Origin: a virus
Taxonomy: Duplodnaviria; Heunggongvirae; Uroviricota; Caudoviricetes
Reading direction: 5' to 3' (one strand)
Virus record (IMG/VR): IMGVR_UViG_2574180358_000007
DNA: 12,024 nt
The notes below the pieces were generated by a model. The model was not told the DNA's origin. It worked only from the letters and a program-made list of their open reading frames with translations, and searched no databases. Both the position numbers and the translations under genes were made by a program. Shown here piece by piece: positions 1 to 11,754 of this stretch (positions are counted from its first letter, which is position 1; each line of letters begins with the position of its first letter).

Positions 1-1209
1 TCATAAAGACTTGCTACTTTCTAATTCTGGGTTTCTGGATCTATTTTTACAACCTGAACCCGGCTGGGAATTTAGTATATCTTTTATCAAATCTTGTTCG
101 ATAGCATTTATTAAGAGCATTATGTCGAATTTATGCATGTCGTCTCCCCCTTCAGTCCTTAGATGTTCGGATGTGGTGAGTTGAGTCGCTAATTTGCTGT
201 TTGGCCCCCAAACAATATTATTCTCGAATTTCCCTTCATGCATTCGGTTATTATATATACAGTATTGTCTAATGTTTAATGCACTGGCTAAATGTACAAT
301 GGCAGTATCTACAGTTATAACAAAATCAGCATGGCGAACCAATGCAAATGAGCATCCTGCATCAGAAAATGGAGACAGAGACACATAATCCAATCCATTG
401 TGATTAATCTGTTTTCCCATGTTAAAAACTATTGTGTGATATCCCTTAAGATTGTTAAGGTAAACTAGTACTTTGTTTATCTGTTCATCAGATAAGGTTC
501 TGCTATTCTGAGAGCCATAAGGGTTAAATATAACTAATTTTTTGTTTTTCTTCCTGAATTCATTTGCAACAATATTTGCTGGCTCATATATTTTGTTGTC
601 AAAATTAAGCGCTGCAGCGTAATCATTATTTTTTATCTTTAGTAAAGATAAAACTTTTTTCATTCTTTCAGATGAGTGAACGGAACGGTTATCGATTATA
701 TTTGTATCAAAAATAGTTACGGCAGGATGATTAAAACAGATAGAGTGTTTAGGTTTAAGTAAATATAGTGTTTGCAATCTGGTTATCGCTGTGTTATCAA
801 AATTTGAGAAGTCAACAACAAGATCTACATTCAGTTTTTTTATCTTTGCTTTTAGTTCGTTAAATTTATTTTTCTCGTAAGAAATAAAGGCATCCACGCC
901 AACAATATCAGTAAAGAGGAATGATACTCTTGGAGGTGCTATCACATATACCACCATACCGGATTCTTGAAGTTGTTTAATAAACCCTGAGGTAACGATG
1001 CCGTCACCAATGGCCTGCATGTGCATGAAAATGCACACTGTTTTATAACTATCCGACTGTAATGATGTTTTCCTTCTGTATCGCATTTTTAGAAATGCCA
1101 GTCTGGCCTTCGTCTTTATCTTTTTTGTTTTAATATTTCGCTGTCTGTTAAGCTGTTTTAATGATGAAATAACATTCATAATGGTACCCTGAAATTCCAA
1201 ATCACTCAT
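1..1209 (-). CDS. Glycosyltransferase family 9 (heptosyltransferase-like) protein; start codon uncertain
   Basis: Minus-strand ORF ending at TAA (bases 3..1). The C-terminal half carries GT9-like motifs read from the translation: KKLVIFNPYGSQNSRTLSDEQ and ADFVITVDTAIVHLASALNIRQ, which resemble the HPGAS..K.WP and VGNDSGPMHLAAA regions of heptosyltransferases. An N-terminal Rossmann-like start is at KTVCIFMHMQAIGDG. The track ORF begins with GTG at 1347 and would overlap tfa; in-frame ATGs lie at 1209, 1179 (AGGG about 7 nt upstream) and 1086, and I chose 1209 without strong support. Codon usage is very A/T-rich and Lys-rich. Confidence 0.55.
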   Translation of the reverse strand: MSDLEFQGTIMNVISSLKQLNRQRNIKTKKIKTKARLAFLKMRYRRKTSLQSDSYKTVCIFMHMQAIGDGIVTSGFIKQLQESGMVVYVIAPPRVSFLFTDIVGVDAFISYEKNKFNELKAKIKKLNVDLVVDFSNFDNTAITRLQTLYLLKPKHSICFNHPAVTIFDTNIIDNRSVHSSERMKKVLSLLKIKNNDYAAALNFDNKIYEPANIVANEFRKKNKKLVIFNPYGSQNSRTLSDEQINKVLVYLNNLKGYHTIVFNMGKQINHNGLDYVSLSPFSDAGCSFALVRHADFVITVDTAIVHLASALNIRQYCIYNNRMHEGKFENNIVWGPNSKLATQLTTSEHLRTEGGDDMHKFDIMLLINAIEQDLIKDILNSQPGSGCKNRSRNPELESSKSL

Positions 1210-1273
1210 GTCATTCGAAACGAGCAGGGTACTATACAAAAAACTGGACTTCAATGGTTTGAAATGAAAGCCT

Positions 1274-1873
1274 TTATGCTTGTTTACTCCTTGATTCCAC
1301 TGGGGAAGCAGGCCACTCAATATCCGGTGCACTTGATGTATCAACACGGTTCAGCAATACCCGATACTTTTTCCATGCTTCCAGCAACGAGATTTCTTCC
1401 TCCGTTGCAATTTCCAGATCTGCAGCATCCTGAAGCGGCGCAATATGCTCACTGGCTACCTGCATCAGGTTGTTTTTTGTTTCTTCCGCCTCCCGTATCC
1501 GGAACAGTTTTTCTGCTTCCGTATCCTTCACCCAGGCTATGCCGTTCCACTTCTGATATTCCCCTTCCGGCGACAACCAGGTAACATTTTCCGGTAACGG
1601 ACCGAGTTCAGAAATAAATAACGCATCGCCGAAAGCCACGTCATAAACCGTTTTACCACGATGATCTTCAACGAGATGCCAGGACGCCTCATCACTGTTG
1701 AAAATAGCCACGAAGCCAGCCGGAATATCTGGCGGTACAATATCGGTACTGTTTGCAGGTAGACCTGTATGAGGTGGAATATATGTGTCACCTTCACCAA
1801 TAAATTCATTAGTTCCGGCCAGCAGATTATAAATTTTGATGGTTCGTGATTGTTCACTCATTCTGAATGCCAT
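1274..1873 (-). CDS. tfa: Phage tail fibre assembly protein (lambda Tfa / TfaQ-TfaR-TfaE family)
   Basis: The 199-aa translation [44 protein letters not shown]...[14 protein letters not shown] matches, from memory, the tail fibre assembly proteins of E. coli cryptic prophages (Rac, Qin, e14) almost residue for residue. ATG at 1873, stop TAA at 1276..1274. Confidence 0.85.
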
Positions 1874-1903: not shown

Positions 1904-2371
1904 ATGTTTTTGACGGTGTTTTCCGCGTTACCAGCAGCGTTAACGGTGATGGTGTGTCCATGTGAGCCAATCGCAACGGAGTGCGTGTGTGCACCAATAA
2001 AGGCAGTACGGGACCGGGTTCACAATGAACTCAATGCCGGACATCCGGTACCGGGGTTTAAACTGGTAACAGGAAAACAAGGTAACCGGGCCTGGAGTGA
2101 TGAAGAGGCAGCTCGCGCACTTCTGAAGGACCAGTTCAGGTACAAAACTGAAGAAGTATTCGACTTTAAACTTATTAGTCCCACAAAAGCCGAAAAACTT
2201 ATCAAAAAGGCCAGTCCGCGCCGTTGGTCAAAAGTCGAGGCACTGATAACACGAGCTGATGGTAAACCCACCGTCGTTCCCGAGTCAGACCCACGCCCCG
2301 TACTCAATATCAACCCTGTAAATGATTTCGACGACGTATCCGACGATACGCTAACCGCAGACCTCATCTGA
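1904..2371 (+). pseudogene. 3' remnant of a DUF2800-family (PD-(D/E)xK nuclease-like) phage replication gene; N-terminal part missing
   Basis: A 155-aa ORF ends 16 bp before the DUF2815 gene on the same strand, the position a full-length DUF2800 gene (about 400 aa) occupies in this conserved module. The translation FKLVTGKQGNRAWSDEEAARALL...KPTVVPESDPRPVL looks like the C-terminal region of such proteins as I recall them. In-frame stops lie immediately upstream and tfa on the opposite strand ends only 30 bp away, so no room exists for the N-terminal two thirds. Confidence 0.4.
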
Positions 2372-2935: not shown

Positions 2936-2986
2936 AAATATTCATCCCCCAGCTACGTGCTGGGGTATCTCATGAGGGAAAGTATA

Positions 2987-3628
2987 ATGTCACAGCCCGT
3001 ATTAACTAATCACCTTAAAACTCAAATCATCAATAACGCACTTGAGAAAGCGGGTATTCCCAAACGTAAATCAGCACTACGAGCTGCTCGTGTTGAATGG
3101 GCCGAACGTGTTCGGCTTGCAGCTATCGGGGGCGTAGAGAAAGAAGCTGAAATATTAAAAAATATAAAAAAGATTGAATCCATGGTCACAAAAATCCCTG
3201 ATTCATTAAAAACCAATAGTTCTTTAATTCGAAAAGATTGCTGCATATATCTCAATCTGGCTGGAGCCAGAGCAAACATTTATTTCAATGGCAACTACAG
3301 AGGTTATGAATCAGGAGCCCCCGAGCATATTAATAAAATAGCACCTGCAGAATTTACTCTACTTGGCGAAGATCCTCTGGTAACGGAGTTTTATAGCTTT
3401 GATGCTCTCTACACACAAATTAAAAGTGATGAAACCGAAATCATACAGAACGTCAGCGCGGCTCTAAATAAAGTTCGGACAGTAAAACGATTACTGGATG
3501 TATGGCCCGAAGCTAAAGAACTGCTTCCAACAGACGCACCGCCAGTCCCTTTAGCACCAGCAGTACATCGAGAGACATTAAATGAAATGATAGGCCTTCC
3601 TACCAATACAGTGTCTGATACTCAATAA
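2987..3628 (+). CDS. Hypothetical protein (A/T-rich insert between DUF2815 and DNA polymerase)
   Basis: Uninterrupted ORF; GAGGGA lies 7 nt upstream of ATG 2987 (alternative ATG 2972, track start GTG 2957). No family recognised from the translation. Composition is A/T-richer than the flanking replication genes. Confidence 0.5.
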   Translation: MSQPVLTNHLKTQIINNALEKAGIPKRKSALRAARVEWAERVRLAAIGGVEKEAEILKNIKKIESMVTKIPDSLKTNSSLIRKDCCIYLNLAGARANIYFNGNYRGYESGAPEHINKIAPAEFTLLGEDPLVTEFYSFDALYTQIKSDETEIIQNVSAALNKVRTVKRLLDVWPEAKELLPTDAPPVPLAPAVHRETLNEMIGLPTNTVSDTQ

Positions 3629-4311
3629 CAAGGGGGATGCTTATTATATGATTTTGAACGTTTTACAATCTCGTTAAGAGGCGTGAAATCAAAATCTCTG
3701 AATAACACATCAGGATACTTCGCTCTTGCTTTATCCTGCAGACCAGTTAAAGTATTTTTTGTGTTACCCAACATTGTATTAACCGCCACTACATGTCTAA
3801 TTTCTGGAGGTTTATCTATACCACCAGAAATTGCTTCATTAAGAACCGACGCCAGTGGGGTTTGTCCCTTACTTGTTGAATCCCACAGCGTCATTAACAG
3901 ACGAGCTGCGTCTATAAATAGCTTTTTGTCAGCATTTGGCTTGACAGTAATACCAGAACTACCTGAGCCAGAACCGGAACGTTCTATTGCTGCACTGGTA
4001 TCCGATTTCATAGGATTAAATAACGGCAGCTCTGTACAACCGATACGCCGAATGAAATCCTTTGCAACATCTCTACCACAGAAAAAAGCCCCTGTACAAT
4101 TTTCATCAGAGCGTTTTTTAAATGAAAAACAATAGTACTGATCGGTTAACGGATAACCGGAATAACTGGTTTTAGTTTGTCCAGTAATAAGTTTCAGGTG
4201 TGCAACAGGCTGAATAATAAAATCCCGAACTATCGCATCTTTTATGTCGTTACCACGGTGACAATAATATTCAGGTAATCCATTAGGCTGTCTCTTATTA
4301 CCCACAGTCAT
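3622..4311 (-). CDS. Hypothetical two-domain protein with a Gly/Ser linker, encoded antisense to the replication operon
   Basis: 229-aa ORF with a strong SD (AAGGAGA, 6 nt spacer) upstream of ATG at 4311..4309. An internal SGSGSGSSG linker separates a Cys/His-containing N-terminal half from the C-terminal half. The 3' end overlaps the 3' end of the convergent gene 2987..3628 by 7 bp. No family recognised. Confidence 0.6.
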   Translation of the reverse strand: MTVGNKRQPNGLPEYYCHRGNDIKDAIVRDFIIQPVAHLKLITGQTKTSYSGYPLTDQYYCFSFKKRSDENCTGAFFCGRDVAKDFIRRIGCTELPLFNPMKSDTSAAIERSGSGSGSSGITVKPNADKKLFIDAARLLMTLWDSTSKGQTPLASVLNEAISGGIDKPPEIRHVVAVNTMLGNTKNTLTGLQDKARAKYPDVLFRDFDFTPLNEIVKRSKSYNKHPPCY

Positions 4312-4372: not shown

Positions 4373-6436
4373 ATGTCCAATATACTATGGGGCGACCTGG
4401 AAACCTATTGTGACATTCCGATCAACAACGGTACCCATGCGTATGCCGAAGGCGTTGAAGTGATGCTTTTCGCATGGGCTATCAACGACGGGCCAGTAAA
4501 CGTGTGGGATATCACTGCCGGTGGTGGTATTCCACACGGCTTATACGAAGCAATCGCAGACCCTGAAACCCTGCTTTATTTCCATAACTCTCACTTCGAC
4601 CGCACCGTTCTGCGTTATGCAATGCCGCGACTGGCACCGCCTGTCGAACGTTGGCGCGACACGATGGTGCAGGCGCTGGCGCACGGTCTTCCGGGGTCTC
4701 TGGGGGAACTCTGCGAAGTACTAGGCGTCCCGCAAGACAAAGCGAAGGACAAAGAAGGTAAAGCGCTGATCCAGCTGTTCTGTAAGCCACGCCCGAAAAA
4801 CAGCAAACTGCGTCGGGCCACCAGTAAAACCCACCCGGAAGAATGGCGGCGCTTTGTTGCTTACGCCGGACTGGATATCGAGGCAATGCGCGAAGTCTAT
4901 AAACGTCTGCCGAAGTGGAATTATCAGGGGACAGAACTGGCGCTCTGGCATCGTGATCAGCAGATCAATGACCGGGGCGTCTGCATGGACATGCAACTCG
5001 CACGCGCTGCGATCGAAGCGGTAGACCAGGAACAAAAGCGCCTGGCAAAGCGTACACAGGAAATGACTGATGGCGAAGTGCAGGCAGCCACACAACGAGA
5101 CGCGTTGATTAAGCACATTGTTGAATCCTACGGTGTGGAGCTACCAGACATGCAACGCAGTACTCTGGAACGTCGTATTGCCGACCCCGATTTACCATCT
5201 GCCGTGAAAGAACTGCTGGCTATCCGACTGCAGGCCAGTACTACCAGCACCAGTAAATACAAGGCACTAATGAAAGGCGTAAGCCACGACGGGCGCTTAC
5301 GCGGTACGCTACAGTTCTGCGGGGCGTCACGTACCGGTCGTTGGGCCGGACGGCTATTCCAGCCCCAGAATCTTCCCCGCCCTTCACTAAAACAGGAACA
5401 AATAGACGAAGGCATCGAAGCACTGAAAGCCGGATGTGCAGACCTGCTGTTTGACAATATCATGGAACTAACCAGTTCAGCGTTACGTGGCTGCATTATC
5501 GCGCCAACAGGCAAAAAACTGGTGGTAAGTGACTTGTCGAACATTGAAGGCCGTATGCTGGCATGGTTGGCAGGAGAAGAATGGAAACTGAATGCATTCA
5601 GAGAGTACGACGCCGGAACGGGTTCGGACTTATATAAACTGGCGTATGCAAAAGCTTTCGATATTGCACCAGATGATGTTGATAAACACATGCGTCAGAT
5701 CGGTAAAGTCATGGAGCTCGGTCTGGGTTATGGTGGTGGTGTATCGGCTTTCATCACTTTTGCGCTGGTTTACGGTCTCGATCTCGACGAGCTGGCGAAC
5801 GCCGCATTGCCAAACATTCCCCGCGATGTTATCCGCGAGGCGAAAAGCTGGTACGACGAATCGGTTAAACGCAAGTCAACCTACGGGCTTTCTGAACGGG
5901 TATTTATCGCCTGCGACTCACTTAAACGTCTCTGGCGCAGGGCGCACCCGGCGACCTGCGATTTCTGGTACGAACTGGAGCGCACCGTCCGCACAGCAAT
6001 CGCCACACCGCAAAAAACATTGTATTGCGGCTATCTTAAAATCCGACGTGATGGCGCGTGGCTGCGCATACAGCTACCATCCGGACGCGCTGTATGCTAC
6101 CCGTCTCCGGTTATCGAAAAAGGGAATATCACCTACAGGGGTGTTAACTCTTATTCGCGTAAATGGCAACGACTCAAAACCTACGGCGGAAAGCTGGTGG
6201 AGAACGTCACCCAAGCAGCCGCCCGCGACGTTCTGGCCGGAAACATGCCGCTGATCGAGGATGCAGGTTACAGCATTGTGCTGACGGTACACGATGAGGT
6301 AATCACCGAGGCGCCGGACACTGACGATTTCAACGATAAAGCGCTTTCCGCGCTGCTCTCCACTAACCCCGAGTGGGCACCCGATATCCCGCTGAACGCT
6401 GGCGGCTTCGAGGCGTACCACTACCGTAAGGATTAG
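4373..6436 (+). CDS. Family A DNA polymerase with 3'-5' exonuclease domain (phage-type, no 5'-3' exonuclease domain)
   Basis: Exonuclease motifs WGDLET (Exo I) and [12 protein letters not shown] (Exo II). Polymerase motif [20 protein letters not shown], motif [17 protein letters not shown], motif [18 protein letters not shown] lies 6 nt upstream of ATG 4373. Confidence 0.9.
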
Positions 6437-6489: not shown

Positions 6490-7251
6490 ATGATGCAGGA
6501 TCTCAATGAAATGGCTCTCAAATACCCACACCCTGTCGAAACTTTTCGTCAATTTTTAGTCGAATCCGGATTTGATGTTACCGGAGAAGAAAACAAAGCC
6601 GGTCATGATTGTTATCGTTTAAGTAATGGTGCCATCATAACGCTTTACCACACCGGAACGATTTTGATTCAAGGCTCACAAGCGGCAAAACCAGAGGTTG
6701 AAGCCATTATTAATGAACACTTGGGTAACGCGCCAGCTCAACGAGTTCAGCCAGCCCAGTTTCAAGAGCCAGCCAAAAAGATTTTCATCGTTCACGGTCA
6801 CGACCATGCAGCAAAAGAGCAGCTTGAGCTCATTCTTCATAAGCTTGGGTTACCTGATCATTTTATTTTGCAGAATACAGGCGGTACTGGACTTACGATA
6901 ATTGAAGAACTTGAGCGTGAAATTGGTCAAGGGCAGACAGCGACTCGTTTCGGCATTGTTCTTCTCACTCCCGATGATGTGGGGTACTCCAAAAGAGACG
7001 GTCAAGAAGCAGCCCTGCCCAGGGCTCGTCAAAACGTAGTTCTAGAAATGGGGATGTTGTTATCATCACTCGGGCGCAGTAACGTGGTCATCTTGCAGAA
7101 GCAACACCTTGAACAGCCTTCTGATGCTGCGGGTATTCTTTATCTCAACTTTAATGATCATGTTCGAGAAACTGTACCTCGCTTAATCCAGCGTCTTAAA
7201 CAGGCCGGTTTCACATTTAATGAAGCTCAAATAGCGAACGCTTCATCTTAA
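6490..7251 (+). CDS. TIR-like domain protein (COG4271 / Cap12-PycTIR-type predicted nucleotide-binding fold) with an N-terminal domain of about 95 aa of unknown function
   Basis: The C-terminal approx. 150 aa, KIFIVHGHDHAAKEQLELILHKLGL...IIEELERE...FGIVLLTPDDVGYSKRDG...PRARQNVVLEMGMLLSSLGRSNVVILQKQHLEQPSDAAGILYL, follows the TIR-like consensus as I recall it (FIVHGhD ... AIVLlTPDD ... RARQNVifELGyf.GkLGr.rV ... PSD..G). SD AGGA lies 5 nt upstream of ATG 6490. An intrinsic terminator follows immediately downstream. Confidence 0.6.
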   Translation: MMQDLNEMALKYPHPVETFRQFLVESGFDVTGEENKAGHDCYRLSNGAIITLYHTGTILIQGSQAAKPEVEAIINEHLGNAPAQRVQPAQFQEPAKKIFIVHGHDHAAKEQLELILHKLGLPDHFILQNTGGTGLTIIEELEREIGQGQTATRFGIVLLTPDDVGYSKRDGQEAALPRARQNVVLEMGMLLSSLGRSNVVILQKQHLEQPSDAAGILYLNFNDHVRETVPRLIQRLKQAGFTFNEAQIANASS

Positions 7252-7317: not shown

Positions 7318-7539
7318 ATGTCATTTAAATATCGGGACAGTCCCCTTTATTACCGGACTGCGCGGGAGGCTTTGCGCCTTGAGCAGATCGGCGAGTACGA
7401 CCGGGCGGCAAAAGCCTGGGCCAAAGCCAACCGCGAATCACGTAACGCACTGAATCAGGACTGGAGCGAACGCCGGTCTGATTTTTGCCTGATGCAGAAC
7501 ATGCGCGAAAAGCGTAAGGCGGTGGACGATGGCGTATGA
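7318..7539 (+). CDS. Small hypothetical phage protein (73 aa) translationally coupled to VRR-NUC
   Basis: ATG 7318 with GAGG about 10 nt upstream. Its stop TGA 7537..7539 overlaps the VRR-NUC start ATG 7529 (ATGgcgtATGA arrangement). The track ORF start at 7288 lies inside the terminator hairpin and is rejected. Confidence 0.5.
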   Translation: MSFKYRDSPLYYRTAREALRLEQIGEYDRAAKAWAKANRESRNALNQDWSERRSDFCLMQNMREKRKAVDDGV

Positions 7540-7801
7540 GCGTGAAAGCCTTATCGAAAAGCACCTCATCGCCGAAGTGAAAAAGGCTGGCGGGATCGCC
7601 TTTAAGTTTGTGTCACCCGGTCGCCGCTCGGTACCGGATCGGATTGTCCTGTTACCCGGCGGTCGTCTCGTCTTTGTCGAATGCAAAGCACCTGGCAAAC
7701 CACCACGCACCGACCAGCTGCGCGAGCATGAACGGCTGCGCGCGCTGGGCTTTACCGTGGTGGTGCTGGATAGCAAAAATCTTGAGGGGATATTATTTTG
7801 A
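7529..7801 (+). CDS. VRR-NUC domain nuclease (PD-(D/E)xK fold)
   Basis: 90-aa product with PDRIVLLPGGRLVFVECKAPGKPP, matching the VRR-NUC D...E.K core. It sits in the expected module position upstream of the SNF2 helicase. Confidence 0.8.
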   Translation: MAYERESLIEKHLIAEVKKAGGIAFKFVSPGRRSVPDRIVLLPGGRLVFVECKAPGKPPRTDQLREHERLRALGFTVVVLDSKNLEGILF

Positions 7802-8437
7802 TTTATCTTTAGGGCTGAGCAAACATGAACGGAAAGCATTCCGTTCTTCAGTACTGGATTTGATAAACGTGAAGTCCTTATCTGCATCTAATAGCTTAAA
7901 CGCCACCTCGTTAGTATCACATTTACCCACCAGAACCTTCTCACCCACGTTGTTAACAAGATGGTATCCTGGTATTTCTCTAACGATATATTTACCTGAA
8001 GAAACCCAAGCACTTATTTGAGCAACTGACGAGGTACATAACATTGTGAAGAGTGCAATAAGAACAACGTTGCTACCAGAAAGACTCCGAAAAGATTTAT
8101 GCCCATCCATTAACAGCTGCCACGTTAACAGTATGGGATAAAATGCAATAAAACAAATAGCGAAAACAATTGGTTTTCCGCCACTCATGTAAAAACCGAT
8201 CGGATTAACCAATCCAACAAACGAAAAATACAACACCGCCGCAACAACCGTAGTTAAAACAAAAGAGAGCCAGTACCTACTTAACTTATAAACCCTAAAT
8301 GAAGTAGCTATCGCTATAAAAATAGGCACTGAAGCCAAACCAGTAAATGAAAGAGTTTTTAGCAGCGAGCTAACATCTATCAATATAAAGTCAGCAGGAT
8401 AACTAAAAAAAATAAGCGAAAGACCATTGATAAACAT
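7793..8437 (-). CDS. Predicted integral membrane protein (about 5 TM helices) with a small soluble C-terminal domain; function unknown
   Basis: 214-aa ORF with ATG at 8437..8435 and no clear SD. Hydrophobic stretches LSLIFFSYPADFILIDV, GLASVPIFIAIATSF, WLSFVLTTVVAAVLYFSFVGLV, IVFAICFIAFYPILLTW, VVLIALFTMLCTSSV are followed by a polar approx. 65-aa tail. Visibly A/T-rich, antisense to the flanking replication genes, and overlapping the VRR-NUC 3' end by 9 bp. Confidence 0.6.
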   Translation of the reverse strand: MFINGLSLIFFSYPADFILIDVSSLLKTLSFTGLASVPIFIAIATSFRVYKLSRYWLSFVLTTVVAAVLYFSFVGLVNPIGFYMSGGKPIVFAICFIAFYPILLTWQLLMDGHKSFRSLSGSNVVLIALFTMLCTSSVAQISAWVSSGKYIVREIPGYHLVNNVGEKVLVGKCDTNEVAFKLLDADKDFTFIKSSTEERNAFRSCLLSPKDKSK

Positions 8438-8560
8438 ACACCAATAAATATGTAAAAATAGAGATCGCAGTTATTAGCGGAATTTTTTGGTCCCATAAAG
8501 ACTCCGAACGTTCAATTGTGGTCATATTCATATCATCATTATTTACATTGAGTGGCGTTT

Positions 8561-9958
8561 ATGAGTATAAACTTATTCTCACCCCATCCATATCAAAACC
8601 TCATCATAAACCACGAAATTGACACTCTGCGCTGCAACATCTGGGCGGGTATGGGAATGGGTAAAACCGTGGCGACGCTCACCACGCTGGAAGATCTTTT
8701 TATGGCGGGAGCGGAGACACAGCCCGCGCTGGTGTTGGCACCGCTGCGCGTAGCCGCCAGCACATGGCCGGATGAAGCGGTTAAATGGGGGCATTTGCGC
8801 AATATCGAGGTGCAGCCGATTATCGGTAATGCCAAAGCACGCGCGGCGGCATTGGCGAACAGCAACGCCAGCGTGTTTACAATCAACTACGACAATCTGG
8901 TCTGGCTGGTGGAAGAGCTGGGCGACAGCTGGCCGTTCGGTACCGTCATTCCGGATGAAAGCACCCGGCTAAAATCCTTCCGGCTGCGAGGTGGTGGTAA
9001 GCGCGCGGCGGCGCTGGGCAAAGTGGCGCATAAGTATGTCCGGCGCTGGATAAATCTCACCGGGACGCCAGCACCGAACGGCCTGGTAGATTTGTGGGGA
9101 CAAGCGTGGTTTGTGGACCAGGGGCAACGTCTCGGACGCACTTACGGCGCGTTTACCTCACGCTGGTTCAACTCGATACAGTTTCCAGGGCAGAGCTGGA
9201 CCAAACTGGAGCCGTTTGCTCACTCACAGGCTGAAATACAGCGAGCATTAGCCGATGTGACCCTCTCGCTGGATGCGGCCGACTGGTTCGATATCAAAGA
9301 CCCCATCCATAACGTAATCCGCGTGGATATGCCGCCGAAGGCCCGTCAGCAGTATCGTGAAATGGAAAAGGAAATGTTCCTCGAGCTGAATGGCGAAGGC
9401 ATCGAAGCACCGAACGCCGCGGCAAAGACACTGAAGTGTCTTCAAATCGCCAGTGGCGCAGTATACACAGACGACACCGGAAGTTGGTCAGAACTGCATG
9501 ACACCAAACTACAGGCGCTGGACAGCATACTGACCGAAGCAGCTGGCGCACCTGTGCTGGTTGCTTATCACTGGAAACACGATCTTGAACGCTTGCTTAA
9601 AGCATTCCCTCGCGGTCGTCACCTCGACCAGGATCCACAGACACTGCGCGACTGGAATTCCGGAAAGATTCCTGTTCTCTTTGCACACCCAGCCAGCGCG
9701 GGCCACGGCCTGAACATGCAGGACGGCGGGAATATACTGGTATTTTTCTCACACTGGTGGGACCTGGAGCAATATCAGCAAATTATTGAACGTATCGGCC
9801 CCACCAGGCAGATACAGGCCGGACACAATCGTCCGGTATTTATTCACCACATTATTGCTGCCGACACTATGGACGAAATGGTGATGGAGCGGCGCAACTC
9901 AAAACGAACAGTGCAGGACATCCTGCTCGATGCCATGAAAAAGAGAGGTATAGCATGA
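8561..9958 (+). CDS. SNF2-family (DEAD-like) helicase of the phage replication module
   Basis: Walker A GMGKT, motif II IPDEST, SNF2 motif III LTGTPAPNGLVDLW, and C-terminal helicase motifs HPASAGHGLNMQ and QQIIERIGPTRQ. ATG 8561 is preferred over the track GTG 8552; only a weak SD is present. Confidence 0.85.
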   Translation: MSINLFSPHPYQNLIINHEIDTLRCNIWAGMGMGKTVATLTTLEDLFMAGAETQPALVLAPLRVAASTWPDEAVKWGHLRNIEVQPIIGNAKARAAALANSNASVFTINYDNLVWLVEELGDSWPFGTVIPDESTRLKSFRLRGGGKRAAALGKVAHKYVRRWINLTGTPAPNGLVDLWGQAWFVDQGQRLGRTYGAFTSRWFNSIQFPGQSWTKLEPFAHSQAEIQRALADVTLSLDAADWFDIKDPIHNVIRVDMPPKARQQYREMEKEMFLELNGEGIEAPNAAAKTLKCLQIASGAVYTDDTGSWSELHDTKLQALDSILTEAAGAPVLVAYHWKHDLERLLKAFPRGRHLDQDPQTLRDWNSGKIPVLFAHPASAGHGLNMQDGGNILVFFSHWWDLEQYQQIIERIGPTRQIQAGHNRPVFIHHIIAADTMDEMVMERRNSKRTVQDILLDAMKKRGIA

Positions 9959-10155
9959 GCGAGAAACCCGACGATTTACTCACCCCGGATGAAGTATGCC
10001 AAAAGTTAGGTATTACACAGAAAACGCTATGTGAGTGGAATATTAAGCATCGTCATCGGGCTATCCTGGCACCAATTCGTTTCAGTGCAAAAGTAGTTCG
10101 TTATGAGCGCCGCAATGTCGACGCTTTTATTCAAAAGTGTCGCAGCCGGTATTAA
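9955..10155 (+). CDS. AlpA/Xis-family helix-turn-helix protein (putative excisionase or transcriptional regulator)
   Basis: 66 aa, LLTPDEVCQKLGITQKTLCEW...VVRYERRNVDAFI, matching the AlpA-type pattern (HTH followed by a conserved VRY/W segment). The start ATG overlaps the helicase stop (ATGA), with AGAGAGG upstream. Confidence 0.65.
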   Translation: MSEKPDDLLTPDEVCQKLGITQKTLCEWNIKHRHRAILAPIRFSAKVVRYERRNVDAFIQKCRSRY

Positions 10156-11549
10156 CCTCGCCGCCGTAGCAATGCCACCTGCGCAAGTATGCTCCGCTCG
10201 TGAGCCTCGAAAGCTTCGCGCTTTAACGCAATCTCTTCCTGCAAAATCTCATCAGAAAAGTCGTAATGTTCTGCCATCGGGTCATCTGACTTGCTGGAGT
10301 GGTGAAGGCAAAGGAGGCTGATTTCCCTTCGGTCTGATCGGGAATAGCCTCTTTCCTTCATCAAGGCAATAACATTGCTCTTAAGGAATTTACGGCACAT
10401 CGTATTAAATGCACCGTCTTTCCCTTTAACAGTCCCATCATGTTTTATTCCTTTTACAGCCCCATCCGGGCTGTATGTTTTCACTAGCTTATCCAGTGAT
10501 CGTTTTGAAAATGGCTGCATTGGATCACGCGGCTGCAAAAATACATAATCCCTGTTGCACTCAGGAACTGAATCACGCCATGCTTTCTGCTCGTCGATAA
10601 TCCGCCGGATCTCCGGCGTTATTGGCAGGCGGAAAGCCTTTTGTGTTTTCATAGCCCCTCGCATGCCGATAACCCCTTCAGGATAAACAATTTCGCCAGT
10701 CTCCTCGTGAACGTAGTCCCAGCGCAGGTTATGGACATTAATCGGACGAACGCCGGTGATGATCATGAAGCGAACAGCATTCTTCTGGTGTACAGAGGTG
10801 CAGGCGGCAACATTGAGCCAGAGCCGGGCGATTGACTCAATATCGGTAAAAAGCCGTGTGGGGGTGGGTTTCTGTACGCGGGAGGAAACATAATCATCTG
10901 GCAGACTGGCAGCAACATTGCGACCGTTACAAAGAGTAGGTGCGCAGAACTTCCAGAACCGACGGAGCTCGGCAAACAACTCCAGGGCGTTATTGTTCGA
11001 GCGAGTGGCGATCCACTCGTCCAGCACTTCCACTAGCCGATTGTATGTTACGTCGCCGAACACCTCGCGCTCGCCGAACGTGGCTTTAATCCGGTCGATA
11101 CGCACCCCGTAGGTTGTGAAACTGTCCGGGCTCAGCTTCTGCCGGGCTACTTTAGCTTTGAGGTCATCCCGGTACATTTCCAGCGCTGCATGTACGGACT
11201 CTGCCCGCAGTCCACCGTCAGCCATACCTAGTGCTTTTTCGCGCGCCAGCTGGATAGCGAGCTCCGGCCACTCGCCAAGCTTTTTACCTTTGAGGCCCAT
11301 CTTTTTTGGAAACTCGGCGTAAAATGTAACCTTACCGGCTTTGCTGAAATCGATACGGAGATAGTTCTCTTTTTCGTATTTGGAACGGCGAGCCACGCCG
11401 GAAGCGGCGAGGATGATTTTGGCAGCAGCAACACAGATTTTCATGTGTGCGCTGATATAGGGGGGTTTACAGGCGTCCCATTTTTCAGATGCGGCTAAAA
11501 CATCGTCATTATTGGGGCTATCCGGATTATGTGTTACAGTGCGCGGCAT
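10152..11549 (-). CDS. int: Tyrosine-type site-specific integrase (P4-like family)
   Basis: An N-terminal arm-binding-like segment (YLRIDFSKAGKVTFYAEF) precedes the catalytic domain (MIITGVRPINVHNLRWDYV ... LLCLHHSSKSDDPMAEHYD, with a C-terminal Tyr candidate). ATG at 11549..11547 has AAGGA 6 nt upstream. The track start is TTG at 11555, and an alternative ATG lies at 11444. Confidence 0.85.
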   Translation of the reverse strand: MPRTVTHNPDSPNNDDVLAASEKWDACKPPYISAHMKICVAAAKIILAASGVARRSKYEKENYLRIDFSKAGKVTFYAEFPKKMGLKGKKLGEWPELAIQLAREKALGMADGGLRAESVHAALEMYRDDLKAKVARQKLSPDSFTTYGVRIDRIKATFGEREVFGDVTYNRLVEVLDEWIATRSNNNALELFAELRRFWKFCAPTLCNGRNVAASLPDDYVSSRVQKPTPTRLFTDIESIARLWLNVAACTSVHQKNAVRFMIITGVRPINVHNLRWDYVHEETGEIVYPEGVIGMRGAMKTQKAFRLPITPEIRRIIDEQKAWRDSVPECNRDYVFLQPRDPMQPFSKRSLDKLVKTYSPDGAVKGIKHDGTVKGKDGAFNTMCRKFLKSNVIALMKERGYSRSDRREISLLCLHHSSKSDDPMAEHYDFSDEILQEEIALKREAFEAHERSILAQVALLRRRG

Positions 11550-11754
11550 TCTCAATCCTTATCTGCGTAGGCGCAGAAAACAAGCTCACACATATAAGTC
11601 TTTTCTACGGGACAAAATGCAATGTGTTGCGGTTTTGTGTTGCTGGACTGAGTTTATCAAGGTTAAATACACTGGATCAACATACAGTAAGTTAATGACG
11701 GTAAAGCATACAAACTCGATACAACTTACTGATTTTAAAATGATTTAACGGTAA

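Follow-up and report, generated by a model that had tools for sequence, protein, structure and literature searches.

What is the low-GC gene that runs antisense between the nuclease and helicase genes of a decayed Escherichia coli prophage, and does it encode a working membrane protein? We examined this for a 12,024-nt stretch of DNA (IMG/VR virus record IMGVR_UViG_2574180358_000007; hereafter the window), which comes from an E. coli chromosomal segment and carries a decayed prophage integrated beside yfhL. The first-pass annotation had placed here, between the genes for a VRR-NUC nuclease and an SNF2-type helicase, a 214-codon minus-strand open reading frame (ORF; 7793..8437) that runs against the replication module. 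It had described an intact gene for a five-helix membrane protein with a short cytoplasmic tail. The antisense orientation and the 9-bp overlap with the 3' end of the VRR-NUC gene (7793-7801) are as reported, and the ORF is indeed compositionally foreign, with a GC content of 37.5% (33.5% at third codon positions) against 55.7% for the VRR-NUC gene and 55.0% for the helicase gene. The gene is not intact, and its boundaries and N-terminus had been misplaced. The window copy is the 3' part of a 245-amino-acid (aa) gene split by a +1 frameshift, an anatomy of which we are highly confident. Tentatively, and at a little less than an even chance, we read it as a recently inactivated copy of an accessory gene (moron) whose intact product is an inner-membrane protein, most likely acting in superinfection exclusion at the periplasmic face in the manner of SieA.

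Full-length homologues of the window protein are 241-245 aa long and have about 31 more N-terminal residues than the ORF. The missing sequence, MNMTTIERSESLWDQKIPLITAISIFTYLLVYVYQWSFAYFF, is encoded directly upstream in another frame, from an ATG at 8531 to a TAG within a run of eight T residues (T8) at 8405-8412. Removing one T gives a 245-aa protein with an N-terminus that agrees with the homologues. Residues 1-11 of the ORF (MFINGLSLIFF) are an out-of-frame reading of the codons for VYVYQWSFAYFF, and from SYPADF on the ORF corresponds to residues 43-245 of the intact protein. The true start is therefore at 8531 (or 8525), and RefSeq carries the identical truncated call as WP_032161662.1 (214 aa, 'hypothetical protein'). 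As the frameshift removes the N-terminus and the first transmembrane (TM) helix, including an invariant Y28, we regard the window copy as a pseudogene with its full-length product absent or present at most in traces. Loss of TM1 would invert or abolish insertion of the remaining helices. As a pseudogene in a decayed prophage, the window copy is by itself of little biological consequence.

To see how the two forms of the gene are distributed, we compared it with related loci in other genomes (numbered with the prefix L). The window shares the T8 allele with the complete genomes of ECZP248, L6-21, and ET729 (L001, L011, and L012). Three others, FDAARGOS_943, the O8:H8 strain 16F5M1D1, and JNE23-001 (L005, L006, and L013), have seven T residues (T7) and an intact 732-nt gene as called by the Prokaryotic Genome Annotation Pipeline (PGAP). 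Without its extra T the window allele is identical to that of FDAARGOS_943 over 738 nt. The four remnants with T8 are near-clonal, differing by 0-4 single-nucleotide polymorphisms per 10 kb, consistent with a single recent mutational event in one lineage.

It is also conceivable that the gene is intact in the strain, with T8 a sequencing or assembly error, or that T8 is real and some protein is made by slippage. Long-read assemblies are prone to errors at homopolymer runs, and nothing else separates the T8 and T7 alleles over the 738 nt. A +1 slip at UUU_UAG, in the context UAU UUU UUU UAG, would allow the P-site tRNA-Phe to re-pair perfectly and go on with AGU, restoring the exact wild-type protein. 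Runs of eight U or T residues are also at the margin of where RNA-polymerase slippage occurs. However, T8 was found in four separate assemblies, the window and three complete genomes of different isolates, while T7 was found in three others, and RefSeq holds the 214-aa product as a non-redundant protein of its own. Against slippage, no Shine-Dalgarno-like stimulator was found upstream of the slip site, and the T tract is missing at this site in all other subtypes of the family. The near-clonality of the four T8 copies again fits one mutation. Both versions of this explanation are distinctly improbable, and simple recent inactivation is much the more likely than leaky expression. Since no other subtype has the tract, we rejected the idea that it is a conserved phase-variation device. 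We also rejected a 138-aa member (P0004, L015; ENA ERZ501982 NODE_576) as a case of recurrent inactivation, as it lies on a chimeric metagenome contig that switches after about 526 nt to Bacteroidetes SusC/SusD genes.

The ratio of nonsynonymous to synonymous substitution rates (dN/dS) between intact alleles is about 0.09. Together with the full-length homologues in other genera, this identifies the gene as genuinely protein-coding rather than a chance ORF. Only 26 relatives turned up when 1.84 billion cluster representatives were searched with a profile. Apart from one 105-aa fragment they are 228-269 aa long, and the match spans most of the protein in nearly all of them. The family was found only in the Enterobacterales; its named members are from Serratia, Yersinia, Enterobacter, Kluyvera, Erwinia, Raoultella, and E. 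coli, all annotated as 'hypothetical'. The window ORF matches the family hidden Markov model (HMM; alignment A3) with E = 3.8e-55. When repaired, the window protein matches the profile (about 230-265 aa) over its full length and is 96-97% identical to the member P0001. TM1 with Y28, followed by a GYPxxFI loop, is found once the one T is removed; in the ORF only SYPADFI is left of it. The C-terminal pair of cysteines (GKC, about 30 aa, then C) is retained in the ORF. All family members have a GC content of 30-37% versus about 55% for their flanks.

The family has one catalogue entry that we could identify. The PHROGs v4 profile phrog_35408 matches 22 of the 25 members (positions 9-205 of 228) and represents the same protein family as collected from phage and prophage genomes. 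It comes without a function or description and so adds a name only, and its score with the window's own subtype is weak (P0001, E = 0.012). None of the 25 members matched Pfam at E <= 1, in a copy that lacks the model PF27470, and no relationship to the family was found in NCBIfam or among PDB sequences. The 5027 defence-protein models of PADLOC-DB v2 gave no match at E <= 0.01, nor did any of the annotated exclusion PHROGs match. A tblastn search with two subtypes against 50,697 phage genomes also found none.

An AlphaFold2 model built on the 25-sequence alignment is confident (pLDDT 86.7, pTM 0.83). It has TM helices at residues 19-42, 53-79, 83-104, 119-143, and 152-177, in agreement with hydropathy, and ends in a five-strand β-sheet (181-224) and a terminal helix (227-244). 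The product is thus predicted to be hydrophobic and polytopic, as the first-pass annotation had it. The earlier count of five helices had included out-of-frame residues, however: only TM2-TM5 are encoded in the ORF as annotated, and the true TM1 is upstream in the other frame. Instead of a short cytoplasmic tail, a periplasmic domain of about 70 aa is predicted. The positive-inside rule is unanimous in this respect across all 25 members, with a mean of 7.6 Lys and Arg residues in the N-terminus and loops 2 and 4 versus 2.0 in loops 1 and 3, placing the N-terminus in the cytoplasm and the C-terminal domain in the periplasm. Every one of the 25 has exactly two cysteines in the C-terminal domain, the invariant C204 and C236. 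For an invariant pair in the periplasm the simplest implication is a disulfide, which C204 and C236 probably form; both the topology and the disulfide are strongly indicated. Mean pairwise identity is highest in periplasmic loop 1 (51%), TM1 (35%), and the C-terminal domain (24%), and falls to 12-19% in TM2-TM5 and 7-11% in the cytoplasmic loops, suggesting that it is the periplasmic face of the protein that is conserved.

Neither solved nor viral structures yielded a relative of the AlphaFold model. There is a likeness in architecture to the TfpY/FimB-like pilin accessory proteins, which are of similar size (235-245 aa), begin with a short cytoplasmic stretch followed by TM helices, and end in a periplasmic β-domain. 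Among the members with precomputed Pfam data a single one, P0006 from Yersinia enterocolitica (L022/L023, 8001-8726), has a weak match to PF27470 ('TfpB'), which we take to be this group, a possible sign of a distant link. The family differs in having five TM helices and one sheet rather than three helices and two sheets, and no pilin gene was found near a family member in any context examined. TfpY-like proteins have three TM helices and two β-sheets, are encoded beside pilin genes, and promote pilus assembly, not defence (PMC11841053).

We also asked whether the gene belongs to this position. By megablast with the flanks, 159 of 5426 complete E. coli genomes have a prophage of this type, but only six have the window allele. 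Something always occupies the interval between VRR-NUC and the helicase, most often an antisense gene, and the cargo varies (Table 1); viable phages of the same type have cargo here too. Two 265-aa 'hypothetical proteins' in the slot of E. coli MINF_2E and C11 are members of the family (HMM E = 2.5e-65 and 2.5e-62), and this subtype is found in 17 further genomes. Kluyvera, Erwinia, Yersinia, and one further host have members in the same slot of the same phage type at other attachment sites. What had been taken for a one-off insertion is therefore a slot occupied across genera by diverged members of one family. Compared with the window, the flanking helicase is 94-97% and VRR-NUC 85-93% identical (73% each in Yersinia), while the family members in the slot are only 23-29% identical to the window protein or undetectable by tblastn. 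Such low identity between near-identical flanks implies either that the proteins diverge very rapidly or that old alleles are exchanged.

In Raoultella (L007), an unrelated lambdoid prophage encodes a 241-aa homologue (59-61% identity) on the antisense strand of its nin/DinI/RusA region. The segment it acquired is equivalent to about 7720-8762 of the window and includes the tip of VRR-NUC and helicase codons 8-69, so the gene is mobile as a unit. Given its distinct composition, its own orientation, its replacement by unrelated cargo, and its mobility between phages, the gene is very likely an accessory moron in a hotspot. The earlier proposal of a foreign antisense accessory gene in the early or replication region of a prophage thus stands, with BstA, candidate-defence PDC-S42, TIR-like, and DUF6338 genes in the same slot of sister prophages whose flanks are 85-97% identical. 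BstA is also antisense in sister E. coli prophages and is positionally an alternative to the membrane protein, but as a soluble DNA-associated protein of the KilA-N/HTH type (about 310 aa) it has no sequence or structural relation to it. The uncharacterised, hydrophobic DUF6338 protein (PF19865, about 206 aa; L002) is likewise antisense in the slot and is not homologous to the family (BLASTP E = 1.7; hhalign probability 0.3%).

The intact gene, antisense to the phage early operon, would be transcribed independently and convergently, presumably in the lysogen. Only weak sigma-70 promoter candidates (8 of 12) were found upstream of it. The start of the membrane gene is about 20-30 nt from that of the helicase gene, in divergent orientation, and the helicase start itself is ambiguous (GTG 8552 in the longest ORF, or 8561, the start of the RefSeq orthologue 9 nt downstream). 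With a gap of about 25 nt the promoter is probably within the 5' coding region of the helicase gene. The first 70 or so helicase codons (to about 8762), which moved with the gene into the lambdoid prophage, probably contain it. Transcription of the early operon through to the helicase would read antisense through the gene and so oppose its expression during lytic growth. Overall, we infer lysogenic expression with moderate confidence. A terminator-like hairpin at 7846-7827 was not counted, being within the coding region and having a poor T-tail.

What would the intact protein do? It would sit in the inner membrane with a cytoplasmic N-terminus, five TM helices, and, probably, a disulfide-stapled periplasmic β-domain. 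From there it would most likely shield the lysogen from superinfecting phages, working on the periplasmic side of the membrane. Such exclusion would interfere with entry of the superinfecting phage DNA, as for P22 SieA. The gene is dispensable, AT-rich, mobile, hypervariable, and under purifying selection, it shares its slot with proven or candidate anti-phage genes, and its product would present a conserved periplasmic surface; in combination these features favour a protective moron. The support for exclusion or defence is from context, which points weakly to exclusion, and the sequence has no homology to known exclusion or defence proteins. An anti-phage role of any kind is about evenly balanced, and a mechanism that specifically blocks injection is somewhat unlikely.

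P22 SieA is proposed to act on the DNA-delivery conduit of the incoming phage at the inner membrane and periplasm, and it exists in types with under 30% identity that are found at a single genomic position (PMC10883804). The family shows this pattern as well. Like the family, SieA is a polytopic inner-membrane protein expressed from a prophage by a single gene antisense to its neighbours. SieA is smaller, with 162-164 aa, three to four TM helices, and a conserved motif predicted to be cytoplasmic, whereas the family has about 245 aa, five TM helices, and a conserved periplasmic domain with a Cys pair. Comparing A3 with SieA, including its FxRYPxEAxxFNK motif, by hhalign gave a probability of 0.2% over only six aligned columns, and P22 SieB gave 0.15%.

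The protein might instead be a standalone abortive-infection or membrane-disrupting effector that senses infection, depolarises or permeabilises the inner membrane, and so kills the infected cell instead of blocking entry. Polytopic membrane proteins are common among abortive-infection effectors, and toxicity would explain why the frameshift allele persists in its lineage. Its slot-mate BstA is a proven prophage abortive-infection protein (PMC8585504). However, conservation is on the periplasmic side, and with the cytoplasmic loops the least conserved part there is no obvious cytoplasmic sensing surface. The slot has no partner gene and the protein no PADLOC match. We consider such an effector unlikely.

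A role in lysogenic conversion or immunity that has nothing to do with phages is rather improbable; the protein would then be, for instance, a modifier of an envelope process or an orphan immunity protein guarding against pore-forming bacteriocins or contact-dependent membrane toxins. Immunity proteins to pore-forming colicins are small polytopic inner-membrane proteins, the conserved surface of the family faces the periplasm, and extreme allelic divergence also fits an arms race between toxin and immunity. Yet none of the roughly 15 contexts examined has a neighbouring toxin gene, no similarity to immunity families was found in Pfam or NCBIfam, and the other identifiable occupants of the slot are anti-phage or DNA-modification genes.

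That the family is tied to one slot of one replication module across several genera could also mean that the protein serves the phage's own life cycle, in anchoring replication to the membrane, in timing lysis, or in excluding its own kind only after induction. This is very unlikely, as sister phages with 95-97% identical helicases have unrelated genes instead and can dispense with it, the gene is antisense to the early operon, and it has also been transferred as a unit to a lambdoid prophage that replicates by another system.

The first-pass annotation had also raised a link to the TIR gene at 6490-7251, whose product matches PF10137 (CAP12/Pycsar-type TIR, E = 5.8e-31) and the PADLOC candidate single-gene family PDC-S35 (E = 1.6e-109). 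The membrane protein would then be the effector of a signalling defence system. Both genes are together in the window and in L001, L005, L011, L012, L014, and L028, and the TIR gene does match a candidate defence family. A family member is found without the TIR gene in L006, L013, L024, L016-18, L021, and L022, though, and the TIR gene without a family member in L002, L003, L029, and L030. As the two genes assort independently, are on opposite strands in different slots with core genes between them, and PADLOC lists PDC-S35 among its single-gene systems (class 'S'), the functional link is unsupported and its likelihood close to negligible. L014 was rejected as a case of selective joint retention of the two genes, as it is a single collinear 3.5-kb remnant with its interior kept by the deletion endpoints.

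Returning to superinfection exclusion, there is a slender chance that the intact proteins form an unrecognised single-gene exclusion or defence family with a new membrane fold and a periplasmic working surface, and that the T8 allele is down-tuned rather than dead. If so, ribosomal +1 slippage or RNA-polymerase slippage on T8 would yield a little wild-type protein, and the homopolymer would be a switch or dimmer for a costly membrane protein.

Table 1. Positions of the disrupted gene and its parts, genes of the prophage remnant in the window, and other cargo found in the slot between VRR-NUC and the helicase.
Feature	Position	Strand	Remarks
Whole disrupted gene	7793..8531	-	Start ATG 8531 (8525-equivalent ATG in PGAP intact alleles); stop 7793-7795
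Frameshift site, T8 (A8 on plus strand)	8405..8412	-	Upstream frame TAT TTT TTT TAG; intact = T7
Orphaned 5' segment, 42 codons + TAG	8403..8531	-	Translation MNMTT...FAYFF, then stop; predicted cytoplasmic N-terminus and TM1
TM1, residues 19-42	~8406-8477	-	Carries invariant Y28
ORF of the first-pass annotation	7793..8437	-	214 codons
TM2-TM5, residues 53-177	8000..8374	-	Hydropathy and AlphaFold2 helices; loops 2 and 4 K/R-rich, predicted cytoplasmic
C-terminal domain, residues 178-245	7796..7999	-	Five-strand β-sheet and terminal helix; predicted periplasmic; C204, C236
Variable cargo slot	7802..8551		VRR-NUC stop 7801 to helicase start; low-GC block
Integrase	10152-11555	-	Rightmost gene of remnant
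Small HTH gene	Between integrase and SNF2-type helicase		
SNF2-type helicase	8552-9958	+	Right flank of slot, conserved
VRR-NUC/PDDEXK nuclease	7529-7801	+	phrog_93; left flank of slot, conserved; converges on membrane gene
ANR regulator	Between VRR-NUC and TIR gene		
TIR protein gene	6490-7251	+	
Family-A DNA polymerase	4373-6436		
Antisense 229-aa ORF	3622-4311	-	Between Nmad5 and polymerase
Nmad5 gene	2957-3628	+	Nucleotide-modification-associated domain 5, E = 1.7e-54; replication module
DUF2815 single-stranded DNA-binding protein gene	Between Nmad5 and DUF2800 genes		
DUF2800 gene, 5'-truncated	1904-2371		Adjoins tail-fibre-assembly gene
Tail-fibre-assembly gene	1274-1873	-	
GT9 glycosyltransferase (heptosyltransferase-like)	1-1347	-	35% GC; far end of remnant
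BstA	Slot in L004, L025	antisense	PADLOC E = 1.4e-115
Three-gene cassette including PDC-S42	Slot in L027		PADLOC match
305-aa protein	Slot in L029		Weak TIR-effector match
DUF6338 + 47-aa ORF	Slot in L002		
Dcm methyltransferase + 106-aa ORF	Slot in L026		
104-aa ORF	Slot in L003		

The remnant is a cryptic prophage of a temperate phage type of the Enterobacterales resembling BPP-1, APSE, and YeP4. Relatives include the induced E. coli phage vB_EcoM-606R2, with a 98% identical polymerase, the Yersinia phages YeP4-6, Bordetella BPP-1, and APSE. The tail-fibre-assembly gene abuts the truncated DUF2800 gene (Table 1), indicating that the structural, lysis, and immunity regions have been deleted. 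The GT9 gene is possibly a lysogenic-conversion gene that modifies lipopolysaccharide. Rfam IS009 (RF02111) has a full-length match at 1332-1530 on the minus strand (219 bits, gathering score 117), where it overlaps both the GT9 ORF (5' end) and the tail-fibre-assembly gene (3' part). The close relatives L001, L011, and L012 have IS903B at the position of window 1841-1849 (a 9-bp overlap of two alignment blocks), and L001 additionally has IS1A; the source of the window has neither. The Nmad5 gene is missing from O8:H8-type relatives (L006).

Other positions of the replication module vary as well. The slot between polymerase and ANR, which holds the TIR gene in the window, is empty in L004 and L006, and in L024 it has an antisense HATPase_c gene with a weak DrmA-like match. 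A third slot, between the single-stranded DNA-binding protein (SSB) and the polymerase (PolA), holds in the window the antisense 229-aa ORF at 3622-4311, which is 39% GC and matches nothing in Pfam, PHROGs, or PADLOC. The product of this slot has 199 aa in L006, 89 aa in L004, 227 aa in Kluyvera (L016), and 176 aa in L021. L026 has a SIR2 protein gene directly upstream of the polymerase. In the Raoultella prophage, a protein of the Acb2/Tad1-hairpin type (L007, 1078-1371; an anti-CBASS/anti-Thoeris sponge by its Pfam label) is encoded near the lysis genes.

For genome annotation, WP_032161662.1 is a truncated call on a frameshifted gene. A membrane moron of a prophage in a defence hotspot belongs to a familiar class; the family itself is uncharacterised and its fold has no known relative. 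The three slots (SSB/PolA, PolA/ANR, and VRR-NUC/helicase) already hold SIR2, TIR/PDC-S35, BstA, and PDC-S42, and if an anti-phage role is shown for the membrane protein they would make a defence hotspot worth mining. Should the intact protein prove to block infection, the few inner-membrane exclusion proteins open to mechanistic dissection would be joined by a structurally unprecedented family, with the conserved periplasmic loop and Cys-pair domain as a handle on how it works.

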